Shown: in pieces, positions 2,898-34,350 of the stretch
Numbering within the stretch: the first letter of the stretch is position 1
Layout of the letters: each line of letters starts with the position of its first letter
Sequence record: PX393110.1
Source of the DNA: a phage
Direction: 5' to 3' (one strand)
Length of the DNA: 64,000 nucleotides
Notes under the pieces: generated by a model
What the model saw: only the letters and a program-made list of their open reading frames with translations
What the model was told of the DNA's origin: nothing
Database searches by the model: none
Position numbers and translations under genes: made by a program

Positions 2898-2975
2898 ACG
2901 CCCCCGCCCACAAGAACGGGCTTTAGGACGGTTCAAAAATCGTTTATTTGAAAAATAAAACGTTTTATTTTTCGT
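2898..2975 (-). promoter_or_regulatory. class-2 conserved intergenic element (GCCC-N8-GGGC hairpin plus AT-rich TCGTTTTATTTTT block), copy A
   Basis: near-identical elements at ~8005, ~11470, ~11855 and ~34268, each just upstream of a small minus-strand gene. Confidence 0.4.
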
Positions 2976-3315
2976 GTCGAACGATGGTATCAATACAGTC
3001 CATATCCATGATAACGAAGATTACAGACTCCCCATTATCTTCCACTACCTTAAGCACCTGCCATCCTTGCTCCATAAAGACTTCTCTCATAGCGGCAAGA
3101 TCTCGCACATGCTTAAGCTCGGTAACTGTAATCACTCTGGGACGAATGAACTTCTTCAGAGTTATCTCGTAAAGATAGGTCCCATGGCTATTGTAGAGAT
3201 TATCTACATTACAGGTATATAGGCCTAACTCCGGACCCCATCCCTGCGATAAGGTCTGGATGAGCTCATAACTAGGCCAATCCCATTTATGCTTACTACG
3301 ATGATACAGAATCAT
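2965..3315 (-). CDS. hypothetical protein
   Basis: 116 aa ORF. Confidence 0.35.
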   Translation of the reverse strand: MILYHRSKHKWDWPSYELIQTLSQGWGPELGLYTCNVDNLYNSHGTYLYEITLKKFIRPRVITVTELKHVRDLAAMREVFMEQGWQVLKVVEDNGESVIFVIMDMDCIDTIVRHEK

Positions 3316-3601
3316 TAGCTACCACCTTATGATAAAATCTTCCGGTAGTGTGGATTACAGTAGCTATGTACTTAGCGTCCACTTCAGTGCCTAGCAGATT
3401 AGATACCGCCTTAATTACAGTTGCTGCTGGGTGTTTATGGTTAATTACCACATCCAGCATCTTACGATCAGCAGATGGGAAGAACTTCTTATTCCGACGA
3501 GCAATATTCTTAACCACCATGTTGGGATCATCGGATGTATAACCAGCTATTGCCATGGTGGTCAATAAGTCGAAGAATTCGATGGGCTTAGTAGACTTCA
3601 T
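3296..3601 (-). CDS. hypothetical protein
   Basis: 101 aa ORF. Confidence 0.35.
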   Translation of the reverse strand: MKSTKPIEFFDLLTTMAIAGYTSDDPNMVVKNIARRNKKFFPSADRKMLDVVINHKHPAATVIKAVSNLLGTEVDAKYIATVIHTTGRFYHKVVANDSVSS

Positions 3602-3676
3602 ATCGTACCTTAACGAGTAAATAAAAATAGGCTGTTAACCGAGGGCGTTCCCCAAGTTAACAGCCTTTGGACCGTA

Positions 3677-4021
3677 TTAAACGGCGGCAGTCAGAAAGTT
3701 ACTGGAGATCAGGAAATCATCCAGAGCTACTTCTGTATTCTTAGGAGTATTGTCTAACTCCCACTCACCCACTCCCAGACGGATCTTAGCCACACCAGGA
3801 GCTATCTCTTCAATAGACAGCTTAGAGCCACCGATGATCTGGAGGCGAAGAGCATTTACAGCTACTGCATACCCAGAGAACGCAGTCTCTACCTGGTGAC
3901 GGAACTCCTGGTCTGAATTAACCTTAGCAGCGTAAGCAGCAGGTTCCATACCCAGTTGCTTAGCATACATCAGATGAAACATGTCCAGGTTAATCTTGTT
4001 ACCAGTAGTCTTCTTAGTCAT
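3677..4021 (-). CDS. hypothetical protein
   Basis: 114 aa ORF. Confidence 0.35.
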   Translation of the reverse strand: MTKKTTGNKINLDMFHLMYAKQLGMEPAAYAAKVNSDQEFRHQVETAFSGYAVAVNALRLQIIGGSKLSIEEIAPGVAKIRLGVGEWELDNTPKNTEVALDDFLISSNFLTAAV

Positions 4022-4538
4022 TTTCGATTTCCTCGGCAGTTACGCCAGTGATGTTTAAATACAGATCGGTCGGTAATTCTGGCAGGGTAGAGACATCCAG
4101 ATTCTCTACGTCCTTGGCCAGAGTTATGTGAGGAGAGTATTCCGCACTGATCTCAGACGGTACCTCCCCAGATGCACGGAGTCGATAGTTAAACGATTGT
4201 AGCAGATCGCTATCGAACGCCAGCACCAGGTAGTTAGCATTCTCACCGAAGATCTCATAGCGAGGATTCTTCAGATGAAGTTTGCTACCTACCAGATCAG
4301 CAATAGTTCCCTCATCCGGAGCACCAGTCCCCGGAGCATACATAAGGGTGCAGTGGTTATCGTGACCGGTATCGAAGTTAAGCTTATCATAATCAGCTAC
4401 TTCAGAGATAACCTGCTTAAGATTATCTATCCAGGCATCAGAGTCTGGACAGAATTTTACCGAGGAGTAACCCTCGTCCACGGACTGTACAAGTCCTAAC
4501 ACTACTTCAGCTTTATTCATTTTTATCACCATGGCCAT
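4014..4538 (-). CDS. 2H-family phosphoesterase (LigT / cyclic-nucleotide phosphodiesterase-like)
   Basis: two H-x-T-x motifs (GHDNHCTLMY and SPHITLAK) about 75 aa apart, the 2H superfamily hallmark. Confidence 0.45.
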   Translation of the reverse strand: MAMVIKMNKAEVVLGLVQSVDEGYSSVKFCPDSDAWIDNLKQVISEVADYDKLNFDTGHDNHCTLMYAPGTGAPDEGTIADLVGSKLHLKNPRYEIFGENANYLVLAFDSDLLQSFNYRLRASGEVPSEISAEYSPHITLAKDVENLDVSTLPELPTDLYLNITGVTAEEIEND

Positions 4539-4825
4539 GGTAGTTTATTTTCGGGCTCCTGCCTATAGTAGGAGCATTTGATACCCAACGATTCCACAAT
4601 ACTTACAGGAATCTTATCAGTTACTTCAGAGTCTTGATAGATTGGTCCGAATACTGATACGTTTGGATCTTGCAACAGTTCAGATATTAATCCAGCCTCT
4701 TCATAAGTCTCGAAGAATGCTGCGGTGGTATCTGGATTACAGCCGAGACCGGTCCATGAGGTGTAAAACTCGTTTACTCCACAGAGAGCACCGTGCTCCT
4801 TATGCACCACTAAAAATCCCAGCAT
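4526..4825 (-). CDS. hypothetical protein
   Basis: 99 aa ORF. Confidence 0.3.
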   Translation of the reverse strand: MLGFLVVHKEHGALCGVNEFYTSWTGLGCNPDTTAAFFETYEEAGLISELLQDPNVSVFGPIYQDSEVTDKIPVSIVESLGIKCSYYRQEPENKLPWPW

Positions 4826-5330
4826 CTGTGTATCCTTTAAGTTTATTTCTATACTTAACCATTTCCTGCTTAGCTATCTCATCACAGAGATTATTTACTT
4901 TGTAGCGAGGATTATTGAACTTCTGATGACCTTTGACATGCTTAACCTTAATGGACTTAGGGTTAAGATCGCGAAGCATTTCCATATGCTTATCTATGAA
5001 TTCCTTTAATGCCCATTCGCAATCGCATTGGACGACTACCCTAACACCATCGAATGCTGTCTTAGTCATGGCAAACCATAGGGTCTTCATGATCCCTTCT
5101 AGCTCTGCCCAGTTATTATCTACAGCAGTAAATCCTCCGCGAGTTATATGAGCTCGCTGCTCACCAGGAAGACGAATCCATCCTCCGAAACCAGCAGCCT
5201 TACTCTTATGACAGTACGATGCATCTGAGAAGATTGTTATATAGCCCGCAGGGTCCAGACCGCGTTCGGGAGTACCCTCGAAGTGGATAACTCTACCAAC
5301 ATCTTTCTCACCGATAGCATGTTTCTTCAT
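4800..5330 (-). CDS. ribonuclease HI-like
   Basis: RNase HI catalytic residues in order: IFSDAS (Asp), NWAELEG (Glu), QCDCEW (Asp), VKGHQKFNNPRYKVNNLCDEIA (His/Asp). Confidence 0.6.
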   Translation of the reverse strand: MKKHAIGEKDVGRVIHFEGTPERGLDPAGYITIFSDASYCHKSKAAGFGGWIRLPGEQRAHITRGGFTAVDNNWAELEGIMKTLWFAMTKTAFDGVRVVVQCDCEWALKEFIDKHMEMLRDLNPKSIKVKHVKGHQKFNNPRYKVNNLCDEIAKQEMVKYRNKLKGYTDAGIFSGA

Positions 5331-6898
5331 TACATATCCACCGTAGTTGCCTGGAACAGACCTACCACCATTTCGTGGGACGGCTTCACGACCGGACTAT
5401 CGAAGTCAATAGAGCTGTTGATGTTCTGGTTAACCATCATCAGGCTACGTACTTCCCAGCAAGCACGATCAGTCAGTACACGGTGAATTGCTGCGGTATC
5501 ACCATCCACGTCCATGTTCTGACCACCCATCGCCATCGGAGGAACCTGAATCTCCTTACCCATGTGAGGTCTGACCTTAAATCCCCATACTGAGTAACGG
5601 TGTAGGGATGGCGCACGGTTCATGAATACCGTAGCATTTTCACACAGTCTCCAGCATACTTCCAGAGCTACTCTGGACTTATTCTTGTACATACGCTGTA
5701 CTTTATTGCTGATGTCGTACATGTTGTACCCTTCGTTAGTCGGGCCACCATATAAGTTCTCCAGCTCACCCAGGATGTCTGGCTGAAGTAATTCGTACAT
5801 CATCTTGAACGGTACACCAAGAGTATCCAGAGGAAGATGCGGAGCCGAAGTAACTACAGAACGACCAGAGTAATCAACACGCTTACCTAACAGGTTACCA
5901 CGAATGCGACCACCCTTGCCTTTAAGGTTATTGATCATCGGCTTAATCAAATTACCGCGATAGTCCTTAGTACCTTCCAGGATTAGTCCGTTAACCATCT
6001 TCTGCATTACAATAGATTCACGAGGAATCAGAGATAACAATGCTTCGCTGGCTTCAGCAGTATCACGAATACTTCTGATACGGATTGCATGGCGCAGGAT
6101 TCGCAGGTAGAGTAAGTTAGTCGGATGATACGACATTACCCCATTACTGATACCGACATCACGGTAGCTCGGAGGATTCACCAGTACTGTAGTGTTATAG
6201 AAGTCGCTGAACTCCGTATAACCACTATTGACTACTGTAGGATCTTCACACTCTTCGATATAGGCTTTCATATCGGCGTGGTTAGCTACCAATGCCTGGA
6301 TAAGACTCAGGAGACCTAATTCCGATGACTCATGCTCGGACATACGACGGATCTTAATCATTACTACTGCGAGGCGCTTCGTGCTATCCTGAACTGGGAT
6401 AGTATTAGAGTAGAACATCGCATACTTCTCACGATCTTCATATTCCGGAAGAGCTGCATTAGACTCACGAACCCGCTCCCGATCATCACCAACCATCTTA
6501 GCTGCCAAACCAGCTTCCTGAACTACGAAGCGGTATCTACCGATAAGGAACTGACCGAACTCTCTCTCTGGAAACCCGAATAACGCAGCCATACGTTTGA
6601 TAGCTAATGGATTCACATAAGGAACGATCGTCTCGATGTGACCCATACGGCGGCGACGGGATTCACGATGCATCGCTACCATACCGCATACATTACACGG
6701 AGGAGCTCCCATAACCAGCTGGTTACCACACTCACACTTACCAGTTACCAGAGGTCCGAATATTCGCTGGCAGAATAGCCCACCAGTGAATGGCTTAGGA
6801 TCATGGAACTTAAGATTATACATGCCCATGTTGGTTACTTCACCACTGGACTCGGCACGGATTACAGCATCAGTTGCAATAGATAACTTTAATTTCAT
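5330..6898 (-). CDS. multisubunit RNA polymerase beta-prime subunit, N-terminal fragment
   Basis: Cys cluster then RRRRMGHIETIVPYVNP (cf. RFGHIELAAPVAHIWF); LLGKRVDYSGRSVVTSAP; NRAPSLHRYS; catalytic NMDVDGD (cf. NADFDGD). Confidence 0.75.
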   Translation of the reverse strand: MKLKLSIATDAVIRAESSGEVTNMGMYNLKFHDPKPFTGGLFCQRIFGPLVTGKCECGNQLVMGAPPCNVCGMVAMHRESRRRRMGHIETIVPYVNPLAIKRMAALFGFPEREFGQFLIGRYRFVVQEAGLAAKMVGDDRERVRESNAALPEYEDREKYAMFYSNTIPVQDSTKRLAVVMIKIRRMSEHESSELGLLSLIQALVANHADMKAYIEECEDPTVVNSGYTEFSDFYNTTVLVNPPSYRDVGISNGVMSYHPTNLLYLRILRHAIRIRSIRDTAEASEALLSLIPRESIVMQKMVNGLILEGTKDYRGNLIKPMINNLKGKGGRIRGNLLGKRVDYSGRSVVTSAPHLPLDTLGVPFKMMYELLQPDILGELENLYGGPTNEGYNMYDISNKVQRMYKNKSRVALEVCWRLCENATVFMNRAPSLHRYSVWGFKVRPHMGKEIQVPPMAMGGQNMDVDGDTAAIHRVLTDRACWEVRSLMMVNQNINSSIDFDSPVVKPSHEMVVGLFQATTVDM

Positions 6899-6913
6899 TT
6901 TAATTTCTCCTAA

Positions 6914-7633
6914 TCAAGGCTTAGCGACGACAGTATAGGCTTCACGAACGATTTCACGAGCTACTTTAGCCGCATGCTGAGTACCACAATACTGATGCAT
7001 GTATTTGAACTGCACAGGTTGCTGCTGGCGAAGATGATTGATATAGCGACGAAGAGTAGGATGGGTGACACTCTGGTCAGCACCACTCACTACCATCATA
7101 AACGCAAACATCTTCAAACTAGCTTCGCGTTTAGCAGGATATTTCTGCATGATGTAATCGATTACACCGTTCACCAGGAGCTTCAGATCACGAGAACGCG
7201 CTATGGGTGATTTCTGGTCTGGGCTAATGGAAGCAGGATCGATTAATTCCACACGACTTTCGCCATCATCGTCCGTTACGAGAGTAGACTCGTTAAAGGA
7301 CATTATGTGACGACGATCCATCGTTTCTTTATCTTCGTGACGAGTATCACCAGTTTTAGCCATATAACCAGTTGGGTTAACTACCCGAAGATACTCATGC
7401 GACACGATAGAGTCGGCAACGTATGGATTATTATTAACACGAGCAATGTTACGGTCTAGCGAACGTAAATCTCCTGAATCTAATGCGCTATCATAGAAGG
7501 ATAAGTCGATGTACTCGTCCCCAGTGTTAGCAATGTTGAATGTTTCATGGAACTTATAGTTAGCGGTCATTGGTCTATCCCAATTAGAGAATTCAAAGAG
7601 CGACCGCGAGGCCGCTCGGTTACCTGCTATCAA
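6914..7633 (-). CDS. hypothetical protein
   Basis: 239 aa ORF between the two beta-prime fragments. Confidence 0.4.
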   Translation of the reverse strand: MIAGNRAASRSLFEFSNWDRPMTANYKFHETFNIANTGDEYIDLSFYDSALDSGDLRSLDRNIARVNNNPYVADSIVSHEYLRVVNPTGYMAKTGDTRHEDKETMDRRHIMSFNESTLVTDDDGESRVELIDPASISPDQKSPIARSRDLKLLVNGVIDYIMQKYPAKREASLKMFAFMMVVSGADQSVTHPTLRRYINHLRQQQPVQFKYMHQYCGTQHAAKVAREIVREAYTVVAKP

Positions 7634-7968
7634 AGCGCGAAGTAATACCAGTCACCATAAACGCGAATCAGCACTTCCTGACTTTCTGCATCCACATTAG
7701 TGAAGTAGAAGCTACCAAATCCGAACTCCAGAGACTCACCAGTCTGCATGAGATCTGCCATTTCATCCATGAACTTATCGAAGTCCGGATCACGGTCCTG
7801 AACTACAGCGACTTCCACCTCCTTGGTGTACAATTCAGAACGACCAATATGAGGAGCAACCTGGCGGAACTCCATTACAGCACCACGAGCCAGATTTTCC
7901 TCAGCAGCATCCCGAACAGAGGCAGTATCGATTGTAGCGAAAGACTTAATTGCATTTAAACGTGACAT
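7630..7968 (-). CDS. hypothetical protein
   Basis: 112 aa; 4-nt stop/start overlap with upstream gene; conserved leader AATTTGGAGCTAATACTATG. Confidence 0.4.
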   Translation of the reverse strand: MSRLNAIKSFATIDTASVRDAAEENLARGAVMEFRQVAPHIGRSELYTKEVEVAVVQDRDPDFDKFMDEMADLMQTGESLEFGFGSFYFTNVDAESQEVLIRVYGDWYYFAL

Positions 7969-8004
7969 AGTATTAGCTCCAAATTAGATTATCCAGTGAA
8001 GCGC

Positions 8005-8075
8005 TACCGCGCCCCACCCAAAAGAACGGGCTTTATGAGCTCCCAAAAATCGGTTATTTGAAAAATAAATTTCAA
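8005..8075 (-). promoter_or_regulatory. class-2 conserved intergenic element, copy B
   Basis: CGCGCCCCACCCAAAAGAACGGGCTTTATGAGC...TCGGTTATTTGAAAAATAAA; same architecture as copy A. Confidence 0.4.
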
Positions 8076-8768
8076 TTATTTTTGGTTAGGAGGCATCTTG
8101 CGAGAACGACGATAGTTGATCATCGTACATGCACAGTTACGCTTATCCTGAGTCTCATAGATAATTGCGCTGGATAATTCCACATTAGACAATAGCAGAG
8201 TCATTACCCGACCTTGGGAAGACAGATCCTGGATGCGCTGCTTATTGATGCACTCTCTTACGGTTTCCTTAGAGTACAGCTTACGATCTCTACGTCCGCA
8301 AGTAATCACGTCTTCTATGGGGACCACCATATCCCCTAGTTCCTTGATTATGAAACGATCATCTGTTATGATAGTAGGGAACGACTTCAATAGTTCTTCC
8401 ACAATCCGTAGAATACCATTGCCCATTCCGTAATACCGCCGATTACTAATATCGTCAATAAGATTATGTCGATATTTTTCATTAATGTAGGTCTTGTGAG
8501 TAGCCAGCAGATAGTACAGTTGCATACCACCGAACCCTTCACATGCCAGATTTCTCCGGAGTACCGCCTTACTTCCTGCGATAGTGAAGTTTCTGATAGG
8601 ATACCAATCAGTAGTCCAAAAGTCGTCTATGTCGTCTATATGCGACTCTATTCCATTATACCAGACTGGTTGTAGGGCATCTGTACCTATGAATTTACGA
8701 CCCTCGTAGCATATACTGTCCCCTACCGTATGGATCAGCAGGGGATTATAGATCTTGCCCACATCCAT
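8076..8768 (-). CDS. hypothetical protein
   Basis: 230 aa ORF. Confidence 0.4.
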   Translation of the reverse strand: MDVGKIYNPLLIHTVGDSICYEGRKFIGTDALQPVWYNGIESHIDDIDDFWTTDWYPIRNFTIAGSKAVLRRNLACEGFGGMQLYYLLATHKTYINEKYRHNLIDDISNRRYYGMGNGILRIVEELLKSFPTIITDDRFIIKELGDMVVPIEDVITCGRRDRKLYSKETVRECINKQRIQDLSSQGRVMTLLLSNVELSSAIIYETQDKRNCACTMINYRRSRKMPPNQK

Positions 8769-8776
8769 CTCCCAAG

Positions 8777-10291
8777 TTATTTGTTATTCAGATTTAACCC
8801 AGCAATGATCATCTCGGAACGGGTTCCGAAGCTAACATCACCATTAAGCACTGCCGAGGTAAGACGCTGCTTAACGTTACCGTGGCCAATAGACTTCAAC
8901 CAGCTAGGGTGCTTCGTAGGGATAGCATCAGCTTTAATCGCCAGTACCTCACCCTTATCACCCATGCTGCGAACACCGATTCGTCCGTTATTCATCTTAA
9001 CCAGATCAGTACAACCACGAGCAATGATCTCATGGTGAATCGATGCGATACCGATACCGATGTCGTCGAAGATGTGCTTAAGCTGGATTGATGCTAGCTC
9101 TGCACCCTTAATAGCCGACCCAGCTTCGTGAGCAAGATCCGTGATGCACTTATACTTAGACTCGGATACCTGAGCTACCGCAGTACCTCTACCACCTACC
9201 GTCTTCAGGATGTCAGCCAAGGTATTACTTACCGAAGTACCGAATTCCTTAAGAGTAGTCGAGCCAGATGTATGCTTACCACGAAGACCAGCCTGGGTAG
9301 ATGGTTCGGAGATATGCTGCGCCGACGCCGTTCCAATACCGAAGTTAATCGGGAAGAAGTTAGCTGGTTTAGCCGGATCCATACCGCAGCAATGCTGACA
9401 TACCCCACCCTTAGTCGATTCACAGGTAATCGGGCTAAGGACTTTAACGTTACCCTCTTCATCAGCTAACTGATCAACATTCTCCTTAGTGATCAGTACT
9501 CGATCATTAGTGAATCGATACAGTGCCGATTTCTTAGGTAGGGTAATCACTTCCTTAGTTCCGCAATCTTCTTCCACAATAGACAGCTCACGAGAGCAGT
9601 TAACCAGCTGACGAGCGAACCAGCCAGTCGCAGGTACCAGGAAGAAGTTACCAGCCAGACCCTTACGAGCAGGTCCGCAGGTGTTGAAGTAGTTGATAGG
9701 AGACAACCCGGAGCTTAAGTTCTCCATAATCGGCATCGGCATGATCTTACCAGTCATACCTACCAGAAGACCCTTAGCTACTACCATCGAGCGAACCTGG
9801 GGAGGAGATACACGAGCGCCAGATACACCCATCGCATACAGAGGATTATGACGGTCTACCTCTTTGAACCAGCGATCAGTACATTCGTTGATCACCTTAT
9901 CAGCAGCCACCAGACGATCCTCGTACTTCATCTTACCGAGTTCCTGGGTCATTGATGGGAAGTCGATACCGAAGTCAAACTTAGTGTCGTCATAGCACAA
10001 GCTAAGTCCAGACATAGTTGCTTTATGGAACCCGAACTGCTGCAACTTATGGAGTCTACGCCCAGCTACTTCCGGAGTGTAGTTATTATTGATGTGAGAG
10101 ACGATCTTCGCAGATTCCTTCTTATCGATTTCTTTTTCTGGAAGATAGCCACTGATTTCCCAAATAAACAGTCGACCGATAGTAGTTTCTTTAGGACCAT
10201 CAGAGAAGTAAAAACGCACCGGAGTGGTGTAGGTTGCTTCTTTCATATCAATAAGACGGTGTAATTCATTCAAGGACTTTGATACGATCAT
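8777..10291 (-). CDS. multisubunit RNA polymerase beta-prime subunit, C-terminal fragment
   Basis: GIGTASAQHISEPSTQAGLRGKHTSG matches the beta-prime region GxxAAQSIGEPGTQLTMRTFHxGG. Confidence 0.65.
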   Translation of the reverse strand: MIVSKSLNELHRLIDMKEATYTTPVRFYFSDGPKETTIGRLFIWEISGYLPEKEIDKKESAKIVSHINNNYTPEVAGRRLHKLQQFGFHKATMSGLSLCYDDTKFDFGIDFPSMTQELGKMKYEDRLVAADKVINECTDRWFKEVDRHNPLYAMGVSGARVSPPQVRSMVVAKGLLVGMTGKIMPMPIMENLSSGLSPINYFNTCGPARKGLAGNFFLVPATGWFARQLVNCSRELSIVEEDCGTKEVITLPKKSALYRFTNDRVLITKENVDQLADEEGNVKVLSPITCESTKGGVCQHCCGMDPAKPANFFPINFGIGTASAQHISEPSTQAGLRGKHTSGSTTLKEFGTSVSNTLADILKTVGGRGTAVAQVSESKYKCITDLAHEAGSAIKGAELASIQLKHIFDDIGIGIASIHHEIIARGCTDLVKMNNGRIGVRSMGDKGEVLAIKADAIPTKHPSWLKSIGHGNVKQRLTSAVLNGDVSFGTRSEMIIAGLNLNNK

Positions 10292-10310
10292 TACTTAATT
10301 CTCCAAATTA

Positions 10311-10956: not shown

Positions 10957-11419
10957 AAAGCCTCCAGAACTAAGTGGACGTTATTCCCTACGCTGTCATT
11001 TACAACGATATGGGATTTAAACTTATACATTTCGTTGATCACATCGGTCATGTGAATCACCGGAATATACACTCGGTCAGAACCAACTACTGCAACTTCA
11101 TTAAGCCAGTCGTAGTCGATTTCATGGGTCTTCAGAAGATTTATGAGATCACGGTACATGAAGCTTACAGACTTGATTCCGCCACTCATACGAGCAGCCC
11201 AGTCTGTAGCAGGGACGGATTCGATTTCCTTCCTACCTTTCATCTTACGGCGAAAGATGGCGGACTGAACGTTCCATAACTCTGAGAATTCTTGATCGGG
11301 GATTTCTCGACCATGCTTGGTCCGGGAGACCAGTCGAGCTTGAGGATCGGCATTAGGACGGAACTGCTCAGCAATAGAAGGAGCAGCTTGTTGGAAGGCA
11401 GCGAAAAGGGATGTAGACA
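10953..11419 (-). CDS. hypothetical protein
   Basis: start refined to MSTSLF (ATG 11417-11419) with GGAGAAAG upstream. Confidence 0.4.
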
Positions 11420-11469
11420 TGACTTTCTCCAGTCTTTCAAGGTCGCAGGCAACGCGACGGATCATTCGG

Positions 11470-11535
11470 CGGGGAACGCCCCGCGCCCAAGTTAACGGGC
11501 TGCAGAGCGCTCCAGACTTCGTTTTATTTTTGGTT
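11470..11535 (-). promoter_or_regulatory. class-2 conserved intergenic element, copy E (divergent)
   Basis: GGCGGGGAACGCCCCGCGCCCAAGTTAACGGGC...TTCGTTTTATTTTTGG. Confidence 0.35.
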
Positions 11536-11817
11536 TTGAGCTTGCTGGAACATCTTGGTGATTTCCAGCATCAGGTCACGGTAGTCAGAAGTCTGAACTC
11601 CTTCCAAACCGTAGTCGGCAATGATTGACTTGAAGTAGTTCATACCGTCCTGGAGGTTATTGAACTCCAGAGGATCTTCAGCCATCGCCAGGTAGACTTC
11701 GGACATAACCACTGGACGGCCATCTTTCTCATCAACGAAAGCAACCAGAACAGCCAGCTCATCTTTGTCAGCAACTGTAGGATTGGAAGAGAAACCGAAG
11801 TTTTTAGCAGTAAACAT
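11524..11817 (-). CDS. hypothetical protein
   Basis: start refined to MFTAKNF (ATG 11815-11817); leader AATTTGGAGCTAATTATG. Confidence 0.4.
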   Translation of the reverse strand: MFTAKNFGFSSNPTVADKDELAVLVAFVDEKDGRPVVMSEVYLAMAEDPLEFNNLQDGMNYFKSIIADYGLEGVQTSDYRDLMLEITKMFQQAQNQK

Positions 11818-11854
11818 AATTAGCTCCAAATTATAACGAACCGTGAAGCGGCCA

Positions 11855-11940
11855 ACCCGCCCCACCCAAAAGAACGGGCTTTAGGACCTCTCAGAGTTCG
11901 TTTTATTTTTCAAAAACATTTCAATAATGAAAAATATTTT
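11855..11940 (-). promoter_or_regulatory. class-2 conserved intergenic element, copy C
   Basis: CCCGCCCCACCCAAAAGAACGGGCTTTAGGAC...TTCGTTTTATTTTTCAAAAA. Confidence 0.4.
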
Positions 11941-11964
11941 TGAAAAATAGGCCATCCTTGGCCT
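11941..11964 (-). terminator. intrinsic terminator-like hairpin
   Basis: minus-strand RNA: AGGCCA-AGGA-TGGCCT followed by AUUUUUCA, directly after the stop of the 487-aa gene. Confidence 0.45.
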
Positions 11965-11970
11965 AATGAA

Positions 11971-14184: not shown

Positions 14185-14263
14185 AATATTCTCCGCTTAG
14201 AATAAAATGGGCTAGATGGTGAAGCGGCACCATCAGGGGAGCTACCCTTTTCGCCCAAACACT

Positions 14264-14294
14264 TTAACAGCCTTTCGAGTCATCAAAAGAGCGG
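14264..14294 (-). promoter_or_regulatory. class-1 conserved motif TTAACAGCCTTT-N9-CAAAAGAGCGG (plus-strand reading), copy 1
   Basis: one of 18 same-orientation copies, each in the short spacer upstream of a minus-strand gene start. Confidence 0.45.
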
Positions 14295-21396: not shown

Positions 21397-21448
21397 GTAA
21401 TTTCTCCTAAGTTACAAAAATAAAGGTATGGAAGTTGCCTCCCACACC

Positions 21449-21479
21449 TTAACAGCCTTTCGAGCCCTAAAAAGAGCGG
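21449..21479 (-). promoter_or_regulatory. class-1 conserved motif, copy 3
   Basis: TTAACAGCCTTTCGAGCCCTAAAAAGAGCGG. Confidence 0.45.
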
Positions 21480-23272: not shown

Positions 23273-23304
23273 TATTCTCTCCAATTAAGAATCTTTCCCA
23301 CATT

Positions 23305-23335
23305 TTAACAGCCTTTCAAGACCCTAAAAGAGCGG
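23305..23335 (-). promoter_or_regulatory. class-1 conserved motif, copy 4
   Basis: TTAACAGCCTTTCAAGACCCTAAAAGAGCGG. Confidence 0.45.
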
Positions 23336-23361: not shown

Positions 23362-24333
23362 CTAGCTAAACTTATACCAGCGAGGTCTCATACGGATCTC
23401 GTGATTCAGTTTATGTAGTTTCGAGAATTCGCAGAATGAGTTGGTGAACATCTGGCGAGTATAGAATCGCTCATCCTCTGGCATGAAGTGGAACCATTTC
23501 TCCGGTTCCCATGAATACCCGAAATGTGCACATATCTCTTTGATGTTCTGATACCACCATTCCACGAATACCTGATAACCACAGGGAGGATTCTGGTCAT
23601 TAATCATGTACCATACCCCATCCTGAGTCCCAGGTCCACATACGATAGCGTCATTATCTGTATACGCAGTCTCTTTAGAGTAGGACATAGTTGCCCAGCA
23701 TTGATATGCCATGAACGGACCTAATCCAGATACCTGTAACAGATGCTCGATAGCCTCGGTAGCGAACGGAGACTTCCATGCCCATAAGATAGGATCACTG
23801 TAGGTCTTCACCAGATAGGCTCTGGCAGCTACACTGTACTTAATATCCTCTGGACATACTTCATTAGCCATCTTAACTGCTGTGCTAAGGAAGTAGGCAT
23901 TTGATTGCTGTGGAGCGGTGAACGGAGGACCATCCTCATAACGACGTAGCTCTTCGCGACCCATGTTATGTATGTCGTCATAGCTCATCTCATAAAGAGG
24001 AAGGACTCTGCGGAAGCGATCCATATATGAATCACCACGGTTTATCATCTGGAAGAGTACTACATTAAGTGCTTTACTCTCCCAGCTTAAAGAATCGTTC
24101 TCCAGAATGTTCTTAATAGCCCACACTGTTTCACGATCGTGCTTACGGAACACGTTAGTGAATTTGAACTTACTAATCCACTTATGTTCCGTCCACGGAG
24201 GAGGCAGCTTAAGCACCTCCTTCTTATAATAAACCTCTGTACGTTCACGGTTATACTCCACATACTCCCGTAACTCCTCAGGATTTATCATCCCAAGGAG
24301 TCCTTCGTAATGCAGACCTAACGGTGTTGACAT
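23362..24333 (-). CDS. hypothetical protein (323 aa), translationally coupled to upstream GT
   Basis: start ATG overlaps upstream stop (TAATG at 24331-24335); Trp/aromatic-rich, no recognisable motif. Confidence 0.45.
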   Translation of the reverse strand: MSTPLGLHYEGLLGMINPEELREYVEYNRERTEVYYKKEVLKLPPPWTEHKWISKFKFTNVFRKHDRETVWAIKNILENDSLSWESKALNVVLFQMINRGDSYMDRFRRVLPLYEMSYDDIHNMGREELRRYEDGPPFTAPQQSNAYFLSTAVKMANEVCPEDIKYSVAARAYLVKTYSDPILWAWKSPFATEAIEHLLQVSGLGPFMAYQCWATMSYSKETAYTDNDAIVCGPGTQDGVWYMINDQNPPCGYQVFVEWWYQNIKEICAHFGYSWEPEKWFHFMPEDERFYTRQMFTNSFCEFSKLHKLNHEIRMRPRWYKFS

Positions 24334-25412: not shown

Positions 25413-25440
25413 ATTTAATTTCTCCGTAGGCTGTCACAAT

Positions 25441-25470
25441 GTAACAGCCTTTTAGCTCATCAAAGAAGCG
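25441..25470 (-). promoter_or_regulatory. class-1 conserved motif, copy 5 (variant)
   Basis: GTAACAGCCTTTTAGCTCATCAAAGAAGCG. Confidence 0.35.
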
Positions 25471-26494: not shown

Positions 26495-26500
26495 AATTAT

Positions 26501-27112: not shown

Positions 27113-27127
27113 TATTAATCCTCGCTA

Positions 27128-27163
27128 CACAAAAATGGGGTTAGGCCGTAGAGACCTAACCCC
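27128..27163 (-). terminator. intrinsic terminator-like hairpin
   Basis: minus-strand RNA: GGGGUUAGG-loop-CCUAACCCC followed by AUUUUUGUG; sits between class-1 copy 6 and the LmbE start. Confidence 0.45.
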
Positions 27164-27179
27164 GTACGCCTCTGACACC

Positions 27180-27210
27180 TTAACAGCCTTTTAGGTCATC
27201 AAACAGGCGG
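27180..27210 (-). promoter_or_regulatory. class-1 conserved motif, copy 6
   Basis: TTAACAGCCTTTTAGGTCATCAAACAGGCGG; overlaps the 3' end of the transporter gene. Confidence 0.4.
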
Positions 27211-28581: not shown

Positions 28582-28584
28582 TGA

Positions 28585-29493
28585 TTATTCCTCAATTACG
28601 CCCTTAGCGATTAACTGGCGACGGACGTATGCGTAGCCAGCAGGTGAAGTAGCGAGGACGATGTCCGCACTACGGAAGTTGGTTTCGATATAGAAGCACT
28701 CCTGAAGATCCCGCGTACAGAAGAGCTCAGTGCTCATCATACCCTCGCGTACGTTACATGCGTCTGCAACGAATTGCGCAACATCTTCGAAGTGGTCTAC
28801 CGAATGACTATAGCCGAATCCACGGGCATCAGTAGATATAACGTAGTTATGGCAGTACGGAGTGAAGTCAGTATCTTCGTAGGATTTACCCTGGATAGTG
28901 AAAATATCTGCATAATCCTTGAACCCGCTCGGGCTAACCAGAAGATCCCAGGCAACTACCATACCGTCGATAACATCTGCTTGAAGTACCAGAGAAGTAG
29001 TATATTCGTCCGGCGCCTTATCACAGACCAAAATTGGGGAGTCCCCCAGAAGGTCCGACATAGTGCCTGCACCCTTGCCCCCGTGAACACGATCACGGCG
29101 TACAAACGCCTCCTGAGGCTTCTGGTACAGTCTAAACGACGGTACAATCAGCGAATCAGGCATAGTTCCCAGATTAGCTTCGGAGCGAAGGCAGGATAAT
29201 TGGTCAGCTTTAGACCACGTACTTTCGATAGCGTGCAGATCGTTACCGATTTTGGTATAGATGTAGCTTTCCGGATTGCGGTACTTACCCTGATTCAGCT
29301 CTTCGATAACCGAGTCGAAATAAGGAAGTCGTACTGATCCCTCACGAGGAGCAGTTAACGCTACTGAACCATGCTTGGTATGATCCTGATCAACTACCAT
29401 AACCTGGTCCAGACTTACACCCATCTTAAGAATCTGGGATAGTGTAGCTGCTGTGTGGTTAGTGCAGCCAATCATCAAATCTAACTTCTTCAT
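28585..29493 (-). CDS. hypothetical enzyme, possibly ATP-grasp-like ligase
   Basis: glycine-rich HGGKGAG and C-terminal FYIETNFRSAD resembling the ATP-grasp E-x-N-x-R motif; weak. Confidence 0.3.
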   Translation of the reverse strand: MKKLDLMIGCTNHTAATLSQILKMGVSLDQVMVVDQDHTKHGSVALTAPREGSVRLPYFDSVIEELNQGKYRNPESYIYTKIGNDLHAIESTWSKADQLSCLRSEANLGTMPDSLIVPSFRLYQKPQEAFVRRDRVHGGKGAGTMSDLLGDSPILVCDKAPDEYTTSLVLQADVIDGMVVAWDLLVSPSGFKDYADIFTIQGKSYEDTDFTPYCHNYVISTDARGFGYSHSVDHFEDVAQFVADACNVREGMMSTELFCTRDLQECFYIETNFRSADIVLATSPAGYAYVRRQLIAKGVIEE

Positions 29494-29520
29494 TTTAATT
29501 CCTCAGTTAACTTGTACAAC

Positions 29521-29550
29521 CTAACAGCCTTTCGAACCCTAAAAAGAGCG
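29521..29550 (-). promoter_or_regulatory. class-1 conserved motif, copy 7 (variant)
   Basis: CTAACAGCCTTTCGAACCCTAAAAAGAGCG; about 27 nt upstream of ATG with GAGGA in between. Confidence 0.4.
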
Positions 29551-29594
29551 AAATAATAGATATCTAGCCACCTCGTAAGATGGCTATGTATATA

Positions 29595-30335
29595 TTACTT
29601 TAATTCGGAGAGATCTGCTATCTTCACCTTAGCTGTTACATCCCAGATTCCTTCACCAAATCCGGTATCTTCCAGCAGCTTAGGCACTTCACGTTTCTGT
29701 ACCTTAGACTGCTCGTACTTAAGCAGAGGAATATTACCGGTCTTATCCGATTGATCCCACAGATAAGTAGCAGCACCAATGTTATCGAACAGTGCGAGAT
29801 CTGGATTAAACTGGGTAAGGAGTCGGCAGTCCCAGTGAGATTTATGTTCCTCGAAAGGATTAGTCTCCGTACCACGCTGACGATACTCGTAGTTAGGAGT
29901 ACCGATCACGATTTTAGCCTTAGACTGGAATAGCTTAGACAACACCATAAGCCCATCTTCGCTATCCAGATGCTCCAACACATCTAGCCAGATAATAGTG
30001 CCGAATTTATCCAGCTCTTCAATAGGAAGATCTTTCAGCAGTTCAACGATATTGCAGATGTAGATATCGCTATATACATTTACACTGCCTTTGATGTAGT
30101 CTTCGCAGATGTCCAGACCTGTGATCTGACCTTCGAATCCTGCGTTACGGAGAGCTAGACCGATCTCTCCACGACCTAATCCCATATCCAGGATTGGCCC
30201 GGAGATAATTTCGTTACGGAGCATCCATTGGAGAAAGTGCTTCTGGACTAAGTAGGAGGTACCTCCGTTGCCCAGTGAAGCCTTCGTGACCTTAGTACCA
30301 GGAACGAAGTTACACTCGATATGTTTACCAAACAT
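29595..30335 (-). CDS. class I SAM-dependent methyltransferase (small-molecule type)
   Basis: motif I ILDMGLGRGEIG; post-I acidic GLDICEDY; TIIWLDVLEHL. Confidence 0.55.
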   Translation of the reverse strand: MFGKHIECNFVPGTKVTKASLGNGGTSYLVQKHFLQWMLRNEIISGPILDMGLGRGEIGLALRNAGFEGQITGLDICEDYIKGSVNVYSDIYICNIVELLKDLPIEELDKFGTIIWLDVLEHLDSEDGLMVLSKLFQSKAKIVIGTPNYEYRQRGTETNPFEEHKSHWDCRLLTQFNPDLALFDNIGAATYLWDQSDKTGNIPLLKYEQSKVQKREVPKLLEDTGFGEGIWDVTAKVKIADLSELK

Positions 30336-30361
30336 GTTCTGTCCTCATTAGTTTCGACACC

Positions 30362-30392
30362 TTAACAGCCTTTGGAGCCGTAAAAGAAGCGG
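30362..30392 (-). promoter_or_regulatory. class-1 conserved motif, copy 8
   Basis: TTAACAGCCTTTGGAGCCGTAAAAGAAGCGG; lies between a terminator hairpin and the SD/ATG of the methyltransferase. Confidence 0.5.
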
Positions 30393-30404
30393 TATTGTAC
30401 ATAT

Positions 30405-30434
30405 CCAAAAATTAGGGTGACCGAAGTCACCCTA
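30405..30434 (-). terminator. intrinsic terminator
   Basis: minus-strand RNA: AGGGUGAC-UUCG-GUCACCCU followed by AAUUUUUGG, directly after the topoisomerase stop. Confidence 0.55.
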
Positions 30435-30439
30435 GTTAG

Positions 30440-31687
30440 TTACAGTTTACCGATCATCTTCTGAATCATCTCATCAGAAGTCTGATTCTCTACCTTAGCA
30501 CGACGCTCTTGCAGATTAGCAATGCGGTCGTCGTGATCTTTCTTACGCAACATGCTAATGCTACGGCTAAGGCAGGAATTCAACACTTCCTGGGTAATAC
30601 CGAGAGCTTTGATGATCTGAGCATCAGACTTATCCTGCATAACCAGCTCGCCCACTTTAGGAAGAATCTGGTAAATCTCGATGTCTCGGTCAATCTTCTT
30701 AAGCGACTCAGTCTTATGGACGGAGAATGCCTGATTGTAGAGAGCCATCGTGACTGCAATCCAGTCGCGAATACCCATCGTCACCAATTGGCCATTATAA
30801 GCTACCTGGATACGATGCGAGCGGTTCATGTAAGCAATATTCATGCATGCTTCGTGAACCTCGTCCATATCGATGGTTCTGATACGTGGAGCCTTCATTA
30901 CTCGGATATAGATCTTATCCTTGGACATGTTCTTGACCAGGATCTTACCTTCGGACAGCCACTTATTCAGGAAGCCGATGCGAGGAGTAATCACCTCACC
31001 AGACCCGATGATGTCGATGGTATCGGTATTGACACGAGTCACCTTAAGGCTAAGACCGAGGCGACCTACACCAGTTTCCCACAGCTGCTTAAGGTCAGAC
31101 TTAGCAGGCACGATATCGTAACCGTACTGAGCCTTAAGCAGATTGTAGTCATCATGCTCATAAGCATCCAGCAGTGACTCATAGGTGAACGCTGGAATAC
31201 GAGACTGAATCCCCGTAGCCCATGAGAAGGTACCGTACATCAGAGCATACGGAATCGGCACCGGAAGGTACGCATATTCCATCTTCTCTTCACCTTCCAC
31301 CTGCGGAACATAGTCCGCTAAGCCGAAGTAGTACTCTGCACGATCTTCGTTCAGGCCAACCTTCGTGTAACGAGGAGCCGCACCAGGTACTTCTTCCAAC
31401 AGTTTCACACCGAAGGAACCCTGACCATCAATAGCTCCGATACGAGCCAGACGAGAGATAGTTCCATCGATAGACTGGTCGCCGAATGGGTGGAGCGACT
31501 GAGTCTCGGAGATAGCACTCAGAGTCCCAACCAGCTTCCCGCGAGCAATGCTATTCAGCGCCATGTAGATACGACGCTGAGCAGGAATCAGGCCATCGAT
31601 ACCAGGAACTACACGATGAAGAGCACAGTACACACTGTAGTCAGTGTAGTTCTTGGTGATGAATTCAGAAATCTTTACCTGTTCCAT
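30440..31687 (-). CDS. type II DNA topoisomerase, DNA-cleavage subunit (GyrA/gp52-like)
   Basis: IDGLIPAQRRIYMAL matches the GyrA-type RDGLKPVQRRILY segment. Confidence 0.6.
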   Translation of the reverse strand: MEQVKISEFITKNYTDYSVYCALHRVVPGIDGLIPAQRRIYMALNSIARGKLVGTLSAISETQSLHPFGDQSIDGTISRLARIGAIDGQGSFGVKLLEEVPGAAPRYTKVGLNEDRAEYYFGLADYVPQVEGEEKMEYAYLPVPIPYALMYGTFSWATGIQSRIPAFTYESLLDAYEHDDYNLLKAQYGYDIVPAKSDLKQLWETGVGRLGLSLKVTRVNTDTIDIIGSGEVITPRIGFLNKWLSEGKILVKNMSKDKIYIRVMKAPRIRTIDMDEVHEACMNIAYMNRSHRIQVAYNGQLVTMGIRDWIAVTMALYNQAFSVHKTESLKKIDRDIEIYQILPKVGELVMQDKSDAQIIKALGITQEVLNSCLSRSISMLRKKDHDDRIANLQERRAKVENQTSDEMIQKMIGKL

Positions 31688-31689
31688 AA

Positions 31690-33675: not shown

Positions 33676-33711
33676 AGTTTCTCCGGTCAGGTTTAAATAA
33701 GCTCGCACAGT

Positions 33712-33742
33712 TTAACAGCCTTTGGAGGGCTCAAAGGAGCGG
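33712..33742 (-). promoter_or_regulatory. class-1 conserved motif, copy 9
   Basis: TTAACAGCCTTTGGAGGGCTCAAAGGAGCGG. Confidence 0.45.
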
Positions 33743-33994
33743 TTCTGGAAGAGCGTACCAACCAGACAGCTCAAAGAACTCATCCAGAGTTCCATTAAAG
33801 AAGGAGTCCAACTCCTTAGCCATTTCCCTGGCGAAGCGACCAGATTCGGTCGACATAACCACACGAGCTTCCTTCATGGGCTCCTTAACCACTTCGTACT
33901 GATCCTGGTTAGGGTAATATACAATGGCGCATTTCAGGTTTACCGACATAACCACCACCGTATTGAATTTAGTGACTTCGAGAAGCTTAACCAT
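33731..33994 (-). CDS. hypothetical protein
   Basis: 87 aa ORF. Confidence 0.3.
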   Translation of the reverse strand: MVKLLEVTKFNTVVVMSVNLKCAIVYYPNQDQYEVVKEPMKEARVVMSTESGRFAREMAKELDSFFNGTLDEFFELSGWYALPEPLL

Positions 33995-34236
33995 TATGCA
34001 GCTTCCCCTGTGACTTTCAGGAACTCGGCCACTTCTTCTGCATCAAATTTGCAGGAAAACTTAGCGCATTCCATAACCGCTTCGAACAGGGTATTGAAGC
34101 TGGAGTCATAACCACCGATTTGGCTAGAGAAGTGAACATTGAACTTTGTATCGAGGCCTGGGGTGTGCTGAATTTCAGCAGAGTTAGCGATTGCAACCAG
34201 AACAGCACCACCACGTGAACTTTTGATTATAGCCAT
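33994..34236 (-). CDS. hypothetical protein
   Basis: 80 aa ORF downstream of class-2 element D. Confidence 0.35.
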   Translation of the reverse strand: MAIIKSSRGGAVLVAIANSAEIQHTPGLDTKFNVHFSSQIGGYDSSFNTLFEAVMECAKFSCKFDAEEVAEFLKVTGEAA

Positions 34237-34267
34237 GATTTTATCCCAAATTAGAAGAGCCGCAGCG

Positions 34268-34350
34268 GGAACGCCCCGCCACCCAAAAGAACGGGCTTAA
34301 AGACGGCTCATAAATCGTTTTATTTTTCATTATTTGAAAAATAAAATAAT
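34268..34350 (-). promoter_or_regulatory. class-2 conserved intergenic element, copy D
   Basis: GCGGGAACGCCCCGCCACCCAAAAGAACGGGCTTAAAGAC...AATCGTTTTATTTTTC. Confidence 0.4.

Follow-up and report, generated by a model that had tools for sequence, protein, structure and literature searches.

The class-2 element is an intergenic module of about 110 nt, made up of an A/T-rich block, a strictly conserved core, an RNA hairpin and a ribosome-binding site. Five minus-strand copies, mostly around the phage RNA polymerase genes, are present in the window, the whole 64,000-nt stretch analysed from an RNA-polymerase-encoding coliphage (PX393110.1). Judged from its sequence, there is about an even chance that the element is a phage-specific promoter joined to a structured leader which doubles as a recombination joint, like the promoter-early stem-loop (PeSL) cassettes of T4-type phages (Arbiol et al. 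2010, PMC2839356; Comeau et al. 2014, PMC4122927). Three features are new relative to an earlier note on this DNA: the hairpin is an integral and conserved part of the element, the association of the element with the phage beta' genes holds even in distant relatives, and the element is a site of recombination breakpoints.

The module consists of an A/T-rich dyad block followed by CGA-N5-TG-N8/9-AAAGCCCGTTCTTTTGGGYGG, a GC hairpin, TCTAATTTGGAG and the ATG. Its spacing is fixed in all five copies (W-rich block, CGA, N5, TG, N8-9, (T)AAAG, CCCGTTCTTTTGGGYGG, GC hairpin, Shine-Dalgarno region TCTAATTTGGAG, ATG). The conserved blocks of the DNA part are CGA, TG and GTTCTTTT, and the 8-9 nt spacer between TG and the core is hypervariable, differing even among orthologous copies that are identical elsewhere. 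Conserved blocks held at fixed spacing around a hypervariable spacer form a promoter-like pattern. The core is an imperfect dyad, AAAG-N6-CTTT, and dyad symmetry of the A/T block was found in 4/5 window copies, including one perfect 12+12 palindrome. The copies and their parts are as follows.

34355..34380, minus strand: intrinsic terminator ATGGGGTC-TTCG-GACCCCAT + TTTTT, recognised from sequence as an inverted repeat, directly upstream of copy 1
34234..34353, minus strand: class-2 copy 1, whole module from the A/T dyad block through the ATG; a variable 80-aa gene follows
CGA 34317-34315, TG 34310-34309, SD ~34247, ATG 34236-34234, minus strand: copy 1 landmarks
34282..34299, minus strand: copy 1 core AAGCCCGTTCTTTTGGG, with the TTTAAG variant of the AAAG word
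34262..34282, minus strand: copy 1 leader hairpin GTGGCGGG-GCGTT-CCCGCTGC, 8 pairs, 2 G.U; dG -14.1 sense vs -9.2 antisense
11948..11965, minus strand: intrinsic terminator TAGGCCAAGGATGGCCTA+TTTTT (TAGGCCA-AGGA-TGGCCTA + TTTTTC), directly upstream of copy 2
11815..11949, minus strand: class-2 copy 2, whole module; the 97-aa gene behind it is replaced in IME392 and EP_H11
CGA 11900-11898, TG 11893-11892, ATG 11817-11815, minus strand: copy 2 landmarks; homology break 11820
11865..11882, minus strand: copy 2 core AAAGCCCGTTCTTTTGGG
11843..11865, minus strand: copy 2 leader hairpin GTGGGGCGG-GTTGG-CCGCTTCAC, 9 pairs, 2 G.U
11418..11535, minus strand: class-2 copy 3, degenerate core GCCCGTTAACTTGGG, before a conserved 155-aa gene preceding the beta' C-half gene
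CGA 11521-11519, TG 11514-11513, ATG 11420-11418, minus strand: copy 3 landmarks; homology break 11521
11469..11484, minus strand: copy 3 leader hairpin GCGGGG-CGTT-CCCCGC
7966..8085, minus strand: class-2 copy 4, whole module, followed by the 112-aa, 239-aa and beta' N-half genes
CGA 8052-8050, TG 8045-8044, ATG 7968-7966, minus strand: copy 4 landmarks; homology break vs EP_H11 at 7957
8017..8034, minus strand: copy 4 core AAAGCCCGTTCTTTTGGG
7995..8018, minus strand: copy 4 leader hairpin GGTGGGGCGC-GGTA-GCGCTTCACT, 10 pairs, 3 G.U; dG -16.7 vs -9.2 antisense
2849..2973, minus strand: class-2 copy 5, whole module, followed by a 94-aa gene
CGA 2942-2940, TG 2935-2934, ATG 2851-2849, minus strand: copy 5 landmarks; homology break vs EP_H11 at 2976
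2950-2973: perfect 12+12 palindrome GAAAAATAAAAC/GTTTTATTTTTC of copy 5
2907..2924, minus strand: copy 5 core AAAGCCCGTTCTTGTGGG
2880..2909, minus strand: copy 5 leader hairpin GGGGGCGT-CAAG-GCGCTTCC, within a longer stem

All five copies listed in the earlier note are real. The 27-mer CCCACCCAAAAGAACGGGCTTTAGGAC matches at 2903, 8013, 11861 and 34278 with 0-3 mismatches (shuffles expect 0), and the fifth, copy 3 (11470-11535), is genuine but degenerate and was recovered at E=7e-11 by a 72-nt profile itself built from element copies. The A/T block described as shared by all copies is so only in part: (A)TCGTTTTATTTTT lies exactly beside the core in three copies, and the 2898 and 8005 copies carry TCG(T/G)TTATTTGAAAAATAA instead. 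The small minus-strand genes reported downstream were recovered as genes of 80-155 aa with a core-to-ATG distance of 60-80 nt, as were the two copies said to follow terminator hairpins directly (11965-11948 and 34380-34361). For CCGYTCTTTT, the half-site said to be shared with the class-1 motif, 11 occurrences were counted where 0.24 would be expected. The earlier note had regarded confinement to the window as disqualifying; a sixth copy lies just outside it in IME392 and EP_H11, and further copies occur in relatives. Each complete genome contains six class-2 copies, and the rest of the genome is without any match.

The window is ~97% identical to Escherichia phage vB_EcoM_IME392. More distant relatives were retrieved through beta' homologues, and metagenomic relatives at only 47-60% protein identity carry copies at syntenic positions beside the split beta' genes. 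The element precedes the same genes flanking beta'C and beta'N in contigs L081/L075 (74-85% identity), L076 (47-59%) and L077/L082 (48-60%). Syntenic counterparts of copy 3 were located at L076 6422, L082 452 and L081 406, and those of copy 4 at L076 9198, L077 2036 and L082 3185. The invariant part in the distant relatives is CGA-N5-TG-N8/9-AAAGC-NN-GTTCTTTTG plus the hairpin, and the A/T dyad block is kept at 47% protein identity. Genes in the operons behind the cassette include those for both halves of the RNA polymerase beta' subunit and for RNase H, along with an Acb1-like gene and small accessory genes. Class 2 is absent from the more distant Ab1-TPeters, L078, L079 and L083, in which class-1-type motifs precede the polymerase genes; a look-alike in Ab1-TPeters, one AAGCCTGTTCTTTTTACAGGGCTT upstream of the polymerase genes, gave no score with the class-2 profile. 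Exact matches to the 17-mer AAGCCCGTTCTTTTGGG (one in IMG/VR and 64 in JGI metagenomes) all lacked the flanking context and were thus dismissed as chance matches. The beta' N-half alone, used as query in IMG/VR, returned no relatives.

The phage belongs to an almost unstudied group (IME392, EP_H11, Acinetobacter Ab1-TPeters, Ralstonia RP13, YerA41 and Carin-5) whose members combine thymidine hypermodification and a phage-encoded cellular-type RNA polymerase with a genome of ~110 kb. A literature search on the transcription programme of this group found nothing. With two clear-cut motif classes, one linked to the polymerase genes and conserved to ~47% protein identity, there are templates for mapping the temporal programme of infection, for identifying the enzyme or factor that reads them, and for reporter and expression tools.

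The hairpin was surveyed over 28 distinct copies, and a position-wise consensus was taken over 16 distinct copies. A hairpin of 6-12 pairs, about two of them G.U, is present in 28/28 copies and begins 0-2 nt past TTTT. The sense fold is stronger than the antisense fold in 27/28 (mean -14.3 vs -9.7 kcal/mol); the copies are related by descent, so such counts are not independent. Among orthologous copies, six of six stem substitutions preserve pairing via G.U or A-U, and pairing in the copy 4 hairpin is likewise kept despite substitutions. Since the G.U pairs form on the sense strand only, these results indicate that the hairpin works in RNA. The lower stem, GGGGC/GCUUC, contains tandem G.U pairs and the upper stem is variable; because the upper stems are of unequal length, alifold yielded the sequence-conserved lower stem only. 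A strong, conserved ribosome-binding site follows 25-35 nt on. Only ~7/24 class-1 copies have a hairpin after the motif, which makes the hairpin specific to class 2.

Several other accounts of the secondary structure were rejected. An upstream hairpin, H1 (GCCCG/UGGGY), is not a conserved helix, as the L076, L077 and L082 lineage has GCGAG with no compensating change. The leader hairpin is not an intrinsic (Rho-independent) terminator: the T-run lies 5' of it, CAC/GG... comes after it, and the terminator scan gave a weak match in copy 2 only. Promoters of the N4 type are DNA hairpins with a 5-7 bp stem and a 3-nt loop, read by a virion single-subunit polymerase. In the class-2 hairpin the G.T stem pairs would become A.C mismatches in the template strand, and the loops measure 3-5 nt or more. 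Rfam 15 at the gathering threshold gave no match to the element in the window, where two tRNAs were the only hits, and E-value scans of three copies gave chance-level matches far under threshold.

From these features we infer that class 2 may be a clade-specific expression cassette in two halves, one acting as DNA and the other as RNA. The DNA half would be a phage-specific promoter consisting of the A/T dyad block, CGA-N5-TG, the free 8-9 nt spacer and the invariant core AAAGC-NN-GTTCTTTTG. Its putative reader is the phage transcription machinery or the host polymerase redirected by a phage factor, and transcription would probably start at or near the G run after TTTT. The transcript would then open with an obligatory GC-rich 5'-proximal hairpin, most likely protecting or marking the mRNA 5' end, followed by the strong ribosome-binding site. 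Of the roles suggested in the earlier note (promoter class, 5'-UTR class, shared factor-binding site), the first two in combination agree with the evidence, and the sharing of the half-site with class 1 is genuine. Copies 1 and 2 sit 10-40 nt past canonical terminators, so the genes downstream need a new start there. The three other window copies have no upstream terminator and could therefore act on read-through RNA. Searches of Pfam, PHROGs, NCBIfam and PDB sequences found no sigma factor, beta subunit, or second, virion or single-subunit polymerase, and the ORFs scanned, which are part of the genome's ORFs, gave no Pfam RNA-polymerase match.

The element is also associated with recombination. 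Of about 11 homology breakpoints between 1 and 36.5 kb, five are no more than 12 nt away from an element edge, and between closely related genomes those at element edges fall at 34225/34253, 11820, 11521, 7957 and 2976. The gene downstream of copy 1 is different in each of three complete genomes, and the copy in contig L084 is chimeric, with an IME392-type spacer and the window-type hairpin and gene. At about 110 nt and repeated, the cassettes may double as crossover points where small genes get swapped or lost. PeSLs combine a terminator stem-loop with a near-consensus sigma-70 (or MotA-type) promoter and are thought to drive modular gene shuffling by recombination (PMC2839356, PMC4122927). 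Like them, class-2 elements are short, presumably regulatory composite repeats between small genes, recur along the genome and lie at the edges of segments that are inserted, deleted or replaced in close relatives. As to composition, all class-2 copies join a stem-loop to a promoter-like block, in the order block then stem-loop, the promoter being putative. In contrast to PeSLs, the class-2 block matches neither the sigma-70 nor the MotA-type consensus, and the stem-loop lies downstream of the block, lacks a U-tract and is apparently in the 5' leader of the transcript. The phage is also unrelated to T4, and its repeats cluster at the phage RNA polymerase genes. The breakpoints also carry the idea of the regulatory cassette as recombination joint from T4-type phages to an unrelated lineage.

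We weighed the promoter-plus-leader reading against explanations that place the function of the element in RNA. One is a processing or stabilising site in read-through polycistronic RNA, in which the U-rich GUUCUUUUG would be cut (e.g. by RNase E), leaving a protective 5' hairpin without any promoter. A U-rich segment does lie immediately 5' of the hairpin in every copy, an upstream terminator is missing at 3/5 window copies, and the hairpin is clearly a feature of the RNA strand. RNase E-type sites are degenerate, however, and would not need ~45 nt of fixed-spacing conservation reaching 35 nt upstream of the cut; the A/T dyad block kept at 47% protein identity is left unexplained, and little read-through RNA is expected at the two copies right behind strong terminators. 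We consider a processing site unlikely. Very unlikely, in our estimate, is nut-like processive antitermination, in which CCGUUCUUUU would be a boxA-type RNA binding NusB/NusE and the hairpin boxB-like, so that a termination-resistant polymerase enters the polymerase cluster. The boxA core of lambda and rrn is GCUCUUUA/CGCUCUUA, with which the class-1 box (CGCUCUUUU; GCUCUUUU) agrees at 7/8 and the class-2 box (GUUCUUUU) at 6/8 positions; among relatives, class-1 motifs likewise contain boxA-like boxes (CTCTTTAAT in L083, CTCTTAA in Ab1). BoxA is an 8-nt recognition unit (PMC3177189), and lambda nut sites and the rrn leader boxA bind NusB-NusE (PMC3177189, PMC2800207). Class 2 resembles them in having a sense-strand CUCUUU-type box and then a hairpin, an order recalling boxA-boxB. 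It differs in that the box is off at 2/8 positions, is T-rich and of low complexity, and adjoins the hairpin without a spacer. No boxB-type loop is conserved, as the loops vary (GCGTT, GTTGG, GGTA, CAAG, CGTT), and 6 to 25 copies per genome are far above known nut systems. The class-1 box, moreover, is found upstream of that motif's promoter-like core, and no N-like protein was recognised. The wider idea that CCGYTCTTTT is a boxA-type RNA signal and class 2 a nut-like or autoregulatory RNA site, loading host Nus factors or the phage's split polymerase onto cluster transcripts, is quite doubtful. If true, a non-jumbo, thymidine-hypermodified phage would control its own multisubunit polymerase by a repeated RNA element, not by a promoter.

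Two further explanations concern the DNA. The core dyad AAAG-N6-CTTT and/or the A/T dyad could serve purely as an operator, binding a phage regulator of the polymerase cluster, with transcription starting elsewhere. The dyad symmetry of the A/T block in 4/5 copies, one of them a perfect 12+12 palindrome, the box common to class 1 and the tie to one functional gene cluster kept across lineages are all consistent with this. Nevertheless, at copies 1 and 2 the stretch from the upstream terminator to the ATG contains nothing else that is conserved and promoter-like, and no DNA-binding protein was recognised near the elements. An operator role is moreover compatible with a regulated promoter and not an alternative to it, and as the sole function it appears improbable, to about the same degree as the autoregulatory RNA site. 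We regard as highly improbable that the elements are host sigma-70 early promoters from which the phage polymerase genes are expressed while the phage enzyme is still absent. The A/T-rich block is UP-element-like, TTGRRN occurs at the conserved TG, and the elements precede phage beta' genes that some polymerase must transcribe first. Yet at 16-18 bp from TTGRRN there is TTTTGG instead of a conserved -10-like hexamer, and (C/T)AAAGC, which is CAAAGC in relatives, lacks the key T at -7. A consensus scan matched one copy only, at a position that is not conserved, and the region has fewer sigma-70-like sites than expected (15 observed vs 25.7). The consensus of the 16 distinct copies contains no conserved -35/-10 hexamer pair 16-18 bp apart, so early promoters for the host polymerase are not indicated. 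Patterns for sigma-54, sigma-28, sigma-32, sigma-E and ECF factors, compared by eye, were also rejected, as spacings or key bases misfit in some copies.

The promoter-plus-leader reading has parallels in other phages. A T7-type late promoter with a phi10-like leader consists of a conserved promoter, a G-start transcript, a 5'-terminal stem-loop and a strong ribosome-binding site. Class 2 has the same order of parts, in which a phage-specific block precedes a would-be G-start 5' hairpin and a strong ribosome-binding region; its sequence, however, is unrelated, its block is bipartite, of greater length and equipped with both a free spacer and an A/T dyad block, and no single-subunit polymerase gene was found here. 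The promoters of the phiKZ and AR9 non-virion polymerases are short, with few conserved bases near the start. Like phiKZ and AR9, the phage encodes beta' homologues of the cellular type, divided between two genes, and it has conserved non-sigma-70 intergenic motifs of its own. It differs in that class 2 spans ~45 conserved nt plus a hairpin, in not being a jumbo phage, and in that neither a second (virion) polymerase set nor a beta homologue turned up in the searches.

The distribution of the class-1 motif is nearly complementary in the window, with 18 copies between 14.3 and 50.3 kb, while the polymerase cluster (1-14 kb) has a single copy, which forms part of a terminator hairpin at 3640-3675. 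Across this cluster class 2 largely replaces the abundant class-1 motif, in line with a promoter role for class 2. The box CCGYTCTTTT is common to both classes at 9/10 positions. In the coliphage and L076 lineages the class-2 core can be placed in register with the class-1 core (AAAG-GCT-GTT-AAAG-TG vs AAAG-CCC-GTT-CTTT-TG), at 10/19 and 12/22 matching positions, which alone are not significant. The class-1 upstream box (CCGCTCTTTT) gives an equally good partial match to class 2.

An earlier note proposed a second conserved intergenic element, designated class 2, with five copies. Its 27-mer matched four sites with 0-3 mismatches (expected, 0), and the fifth copy was genuine, though degenerate. 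The copies lie near 34234-34353 (copy 1), 11815-11949 (copy 2), 11418-11535 (copy 3), 7966-8085 (copy 4) and 2849-2973 (copy 5). Each precedes the ATG of a gene of 80-155 aa, and two sit right after terminators, as had been described. The element is not confined to this window. The close coliphage genomes IME392 and EP_H11 carry six copies each, the sixth ~580 nt past the low end of the window, and a 72-nt profile search of both genomes identified no further copies.

On the minus strand, the element consists of an A/T-rich block, CGA-N5-TG, a spacer of 8-9 nt, (T)AAAG-CCCGTTCTTTTGGGYGG, a GC hairpin, 25-35 nt, TCTAATTTGGAG and the ATG. Spacing from CGA to GCCCG is fixed at 18 nt and the position of TG is constant. 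The spacer between TG and AAAG varies even among orthologous copies with identical flanks; at the 34296 copy, for instance, it reads GAGCCGTCTTT, GGGACCTCCT or GAAGCCTCCT. In four of the five copies the word GAAAAATAAAAC forms a dyad within the A/T block, and one of these dyads, at 2950-2973, is a perfect 12+12 palindrome. Class 2 is a genuine and conserved regulatory repeat that had not been described before.

The hairpin was present in each of the 28 distinct copies, which came from the window, from three other strains and from four relatives at a greater distance. It starts 0-2 nt after ...GTTCTTTT and contains 6-12 pairs, with a mean of two G.U. In 27 of the 28, folding was stronger on the sense strand than on the antisense strand (means of -14.3 vs -9.7 kcal/mol); since the copies are related, this is a consistent tendency and does not count as an independent test. 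The lower stem, GGGGC/GCUUC with tandem G.U, was conserved in sequence; the upper stem and loop varied among paralogous copies. Among orthologous copies, all six countable stem substitutions kept sense-strand pairing via G.U or A-U, where about half of random transitions would retain pairing by a first-principles estimate that was not computed. No U-tract followed the hairpin, and the Shine-Dalgarno sequence was left uncovered by it. A smaller helix upstream (GCCCG/UGGGY) was rejected as non-functional because it was not kept in relatives. In EP_H11 (OP688485, ~2300-2320), a (CTT)6 microsatellite lies behind the hairpin in the copy 1 leader.

The window shares 95-97% identity with Escherichia phage vB_EcoM_IME392 (116 kb) and ~94% with EP_H11. 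Between ~50.3 kb and position 1 the genes lie on the minus strand; the structural genes start at 50.36 kb and lie on the plus strand. A cellular-type beta' RNA polymerase subunit is encoded by the phage as two separate genes, listed here with a domain relevant to DNA modification.

8777-10291, minus strand: beta' C-half gene, separated by unrelated genes from the N-half gene downstream
5330-6898, minus strand: beta' N-half gene, carrying the NMDVDGD catalytic motif
23362-24333, minus strand: 5-hmdU DNA kinase domain (Pfam PF18723, E=5e-35), adjoining a thymidylate-synthase-like gene

The N-half is labelled 'beta subunit' in the IME392 record. Searches of Pfam, PHROGs, NCBIfam and PDB sequences detected no beta subunit homologue in the whole window and, among the scanned ORFs, no sigma factor or second polymerase as a candidate reader of the element. 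A 5-hmdU DNA kinase is a signature of thymidine hypermodification. This domain and the neighbouring thymidylate-synthase-like gene suggest that the virion DNA is probably thymidine-hypermodified, which could alter recognition of T-rich motifs. Relatives identified by beta' included Acinetobacter phage Ab1-TPeters (38%), Ralstonia RP13, Rhizobium and Vibrio phages, YerA41 and Carin-5. IME392 has been listed with phages having a YerA41-like DNA polymerase (PMC12686479).

Logan contigs from relatives were obtained by searching with both beta' halves. Three class-2 copies were found in the closest relative, L075/L081 (74-85% identity), four in L076 (47-59%) and up to four in L077/L082 (48-60%). 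Their consensus was W-rich...CGAAnTyTG-N8/9-cAAAGCGAGTTCTTTTG(G/T)GCGGGG followed by the hairpin. The copies occupy syntenic sites, in front of two genes (the 155-aa gene upstream of beta'C and the gene upstream of beta'N) and after RNase H. The L075/L081 contigs end inside the class-2 core, a typical effect of repeats. In run SRR21194222 the assembler split contigs exactly within the core (the L075 start and both L081 ends), indicating that short-read assembly is confounded by a repeat of this length and uniformity. The element was not found in the more distant relatives (37-50%) Ab1-TPeters, L078, L079 and L083. Relatives with class 2 share the order C-half before N-half, whereas Ab1-TPeters, L078 and L079, which this contrast covers with L083 left out, have N before C. 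Exact-word matches in IMG/VR and JGI metagenomes were chance only and were discarded.

Homology breaks were read from the window aligned to IME392 and EP_H11.

34225/34253: just past the copy 1 ribosome-binding site
11820 and 11521: replacement of the gene that separates copies 2 and 3
7957: just inside the first gene following copy 4
2976: 5' edge of copy 5
14264: at a class-1 site

Five of ~11 breakpoints fell within 12 nt of a class-2 edge, compared to ~0.07 expected by chance, as these edges make up <1% of the region. Copy 2 of a fourth strain, L084, was chimeric, with an IME392-type spacer and a window-type hairpin and gene, which implies a crossover inside the core. The same behaviour at recombination boundaries has been described for the promoter-early stem-loop (PeSL) cassettes of T4-type phages (PMC2839356, PMC4122927). 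Class 2 is probably a phage-specific promoter/leader cassette, a kind already known, and its recombination behaviour is PeSL-like. In EP_H11 (28842-29660 vs window 6914-7968), the 112-aa gene following copy 4 is deleted and its first four codons (MSRL) are joined in frame to the gene that follows, which then encodes 251 aa.

Class 1, the more abundant intergenic motif of this phage, is CCGCTCTTTT-N8-sGAAAGGCTGTTAAAGTGT, with 18 copies in the window and ~25 in IME392. All lie on the early/middle strand, usually 20-35 nt ahead of an ATG.

14259-50274, minus strand: class-1 range, with examples at 14259-14294, 21444-21479, 23300-23335, 39152-39187, 48228-48263, 48286-48321, 48893-48928 and 50239-50274

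Within the core lies an extended -10-like TGnTAAAGT; the core itself is kept in Ab1-TPeters, L076 and L083, with differing upstream boxes. In this phage group, class 1 probably serves as the principal early/middle promoter. Class 2 largely replaces it in the polymerase cluster, where the sole class-1 copy within 1-14 kb is 3640-3675 (minus strand). The class-1-like core of that copy, CCAAAGGCTGTTAAC, is the 5' arm of a terminator hairpin (AGGCTGTTAAC...GTTAACAGCCT + ATTTTTATTT), a predicted combined promoter/terminator arrangement inside the cluster. At 27120-27192 (minus strand), a canonical terminator (GGGGTTAGG...CCTAACCCC + ATTTTTGTG) lies within 12 nt downstream of a class-1 core, and the Shine-Dalgarno sequence and the ATG (27112) come only after it; the arrangement may represent an attenuator or a short non-coding RNA. 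Its tail, CCCCATTTTTGTGTAG, was found again upstream of class-2 copy 1.

A half-site shared by the two classes had been noted earlier. The likeness held at 9 of 10 positions (class-2 CCGTTCTTTT vs the class-1 upstream box CCGCTCTTTT), but the match is not decisive. Nor is the in-register core match of AAAG-CCC-GTT-CTTT-TG (class 2) to AAAG-GCT-GTT-AAAG-TG (class 1), at 10/19 positions, or 12/22 in L076. In lambda and rrn operons the boxA antitermination sequence reads GCUCUUUA. Upstream boxes read CGCTCTTTT in class 1 (e.g. 14285-14294 and 48919-48928), CTCTTTAAT in L083 (3948) and CTCTTAA in Ab1 (PP763253, class-1b sites), and their likeness to boxA could be a T-rich coincidence or a real Nus-factor signal.

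The simplest account of class 2, held with moderate confidence, is a second, phage-specific promoter class with a structured 5' leader and a strong ribosome-binding site. This is suggested by conservation at fixed spacing with a free spacer, the A/T block upstream, the two copies directly after terminators, the distribution complementary to class 1, the similarity of the two cores, and retention together with the polymerase genes. A transcript starting at the G run would carry a 5'-terminal hairpin, which, by analogy with known 5' stem-loops, should shield it from 5'-end-dependent decay. It is unlikely that class 2 is instead a site where read-through RNA is processed by an RNase and stabilised, and a little less likely that it is the operator of a regulator, lacking promoter activity. 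A nut-like site, which the similarity of the class-2 box to boxA favors, is more doubtful than either. The least supported rival, a host sigma-70 promoter, appears improbable; no conserved sigma-70-type hexamer pair was found across the class-2 copies, and consensus sigma-70 sites were depleted in the region. Literature searches found no published work on transcription in this phage group, and the main value of class 2 is that this unstudied transcription programme becomes directly testable.

The operon preceded by class-2 copy 4 includes an Acb1-like (anti-CBASS phosphodiesterase) domain (4014-4538, minus strand; Pfam PF23474, E=2.7e-6), which also occurs in L075 and L084. A fused SbcCD-like nuclease, in which an Mre11-type phosphoesterase domain is combined with a Rad50/SbcC ATPase domain, is encoded by a single 921-aa ORF (34385-37150, minus strand). 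The minus strand also carries two tRNA genes, for Met (CAT) at 46979-47054 and for Arg (TCT) at 47200-47276.
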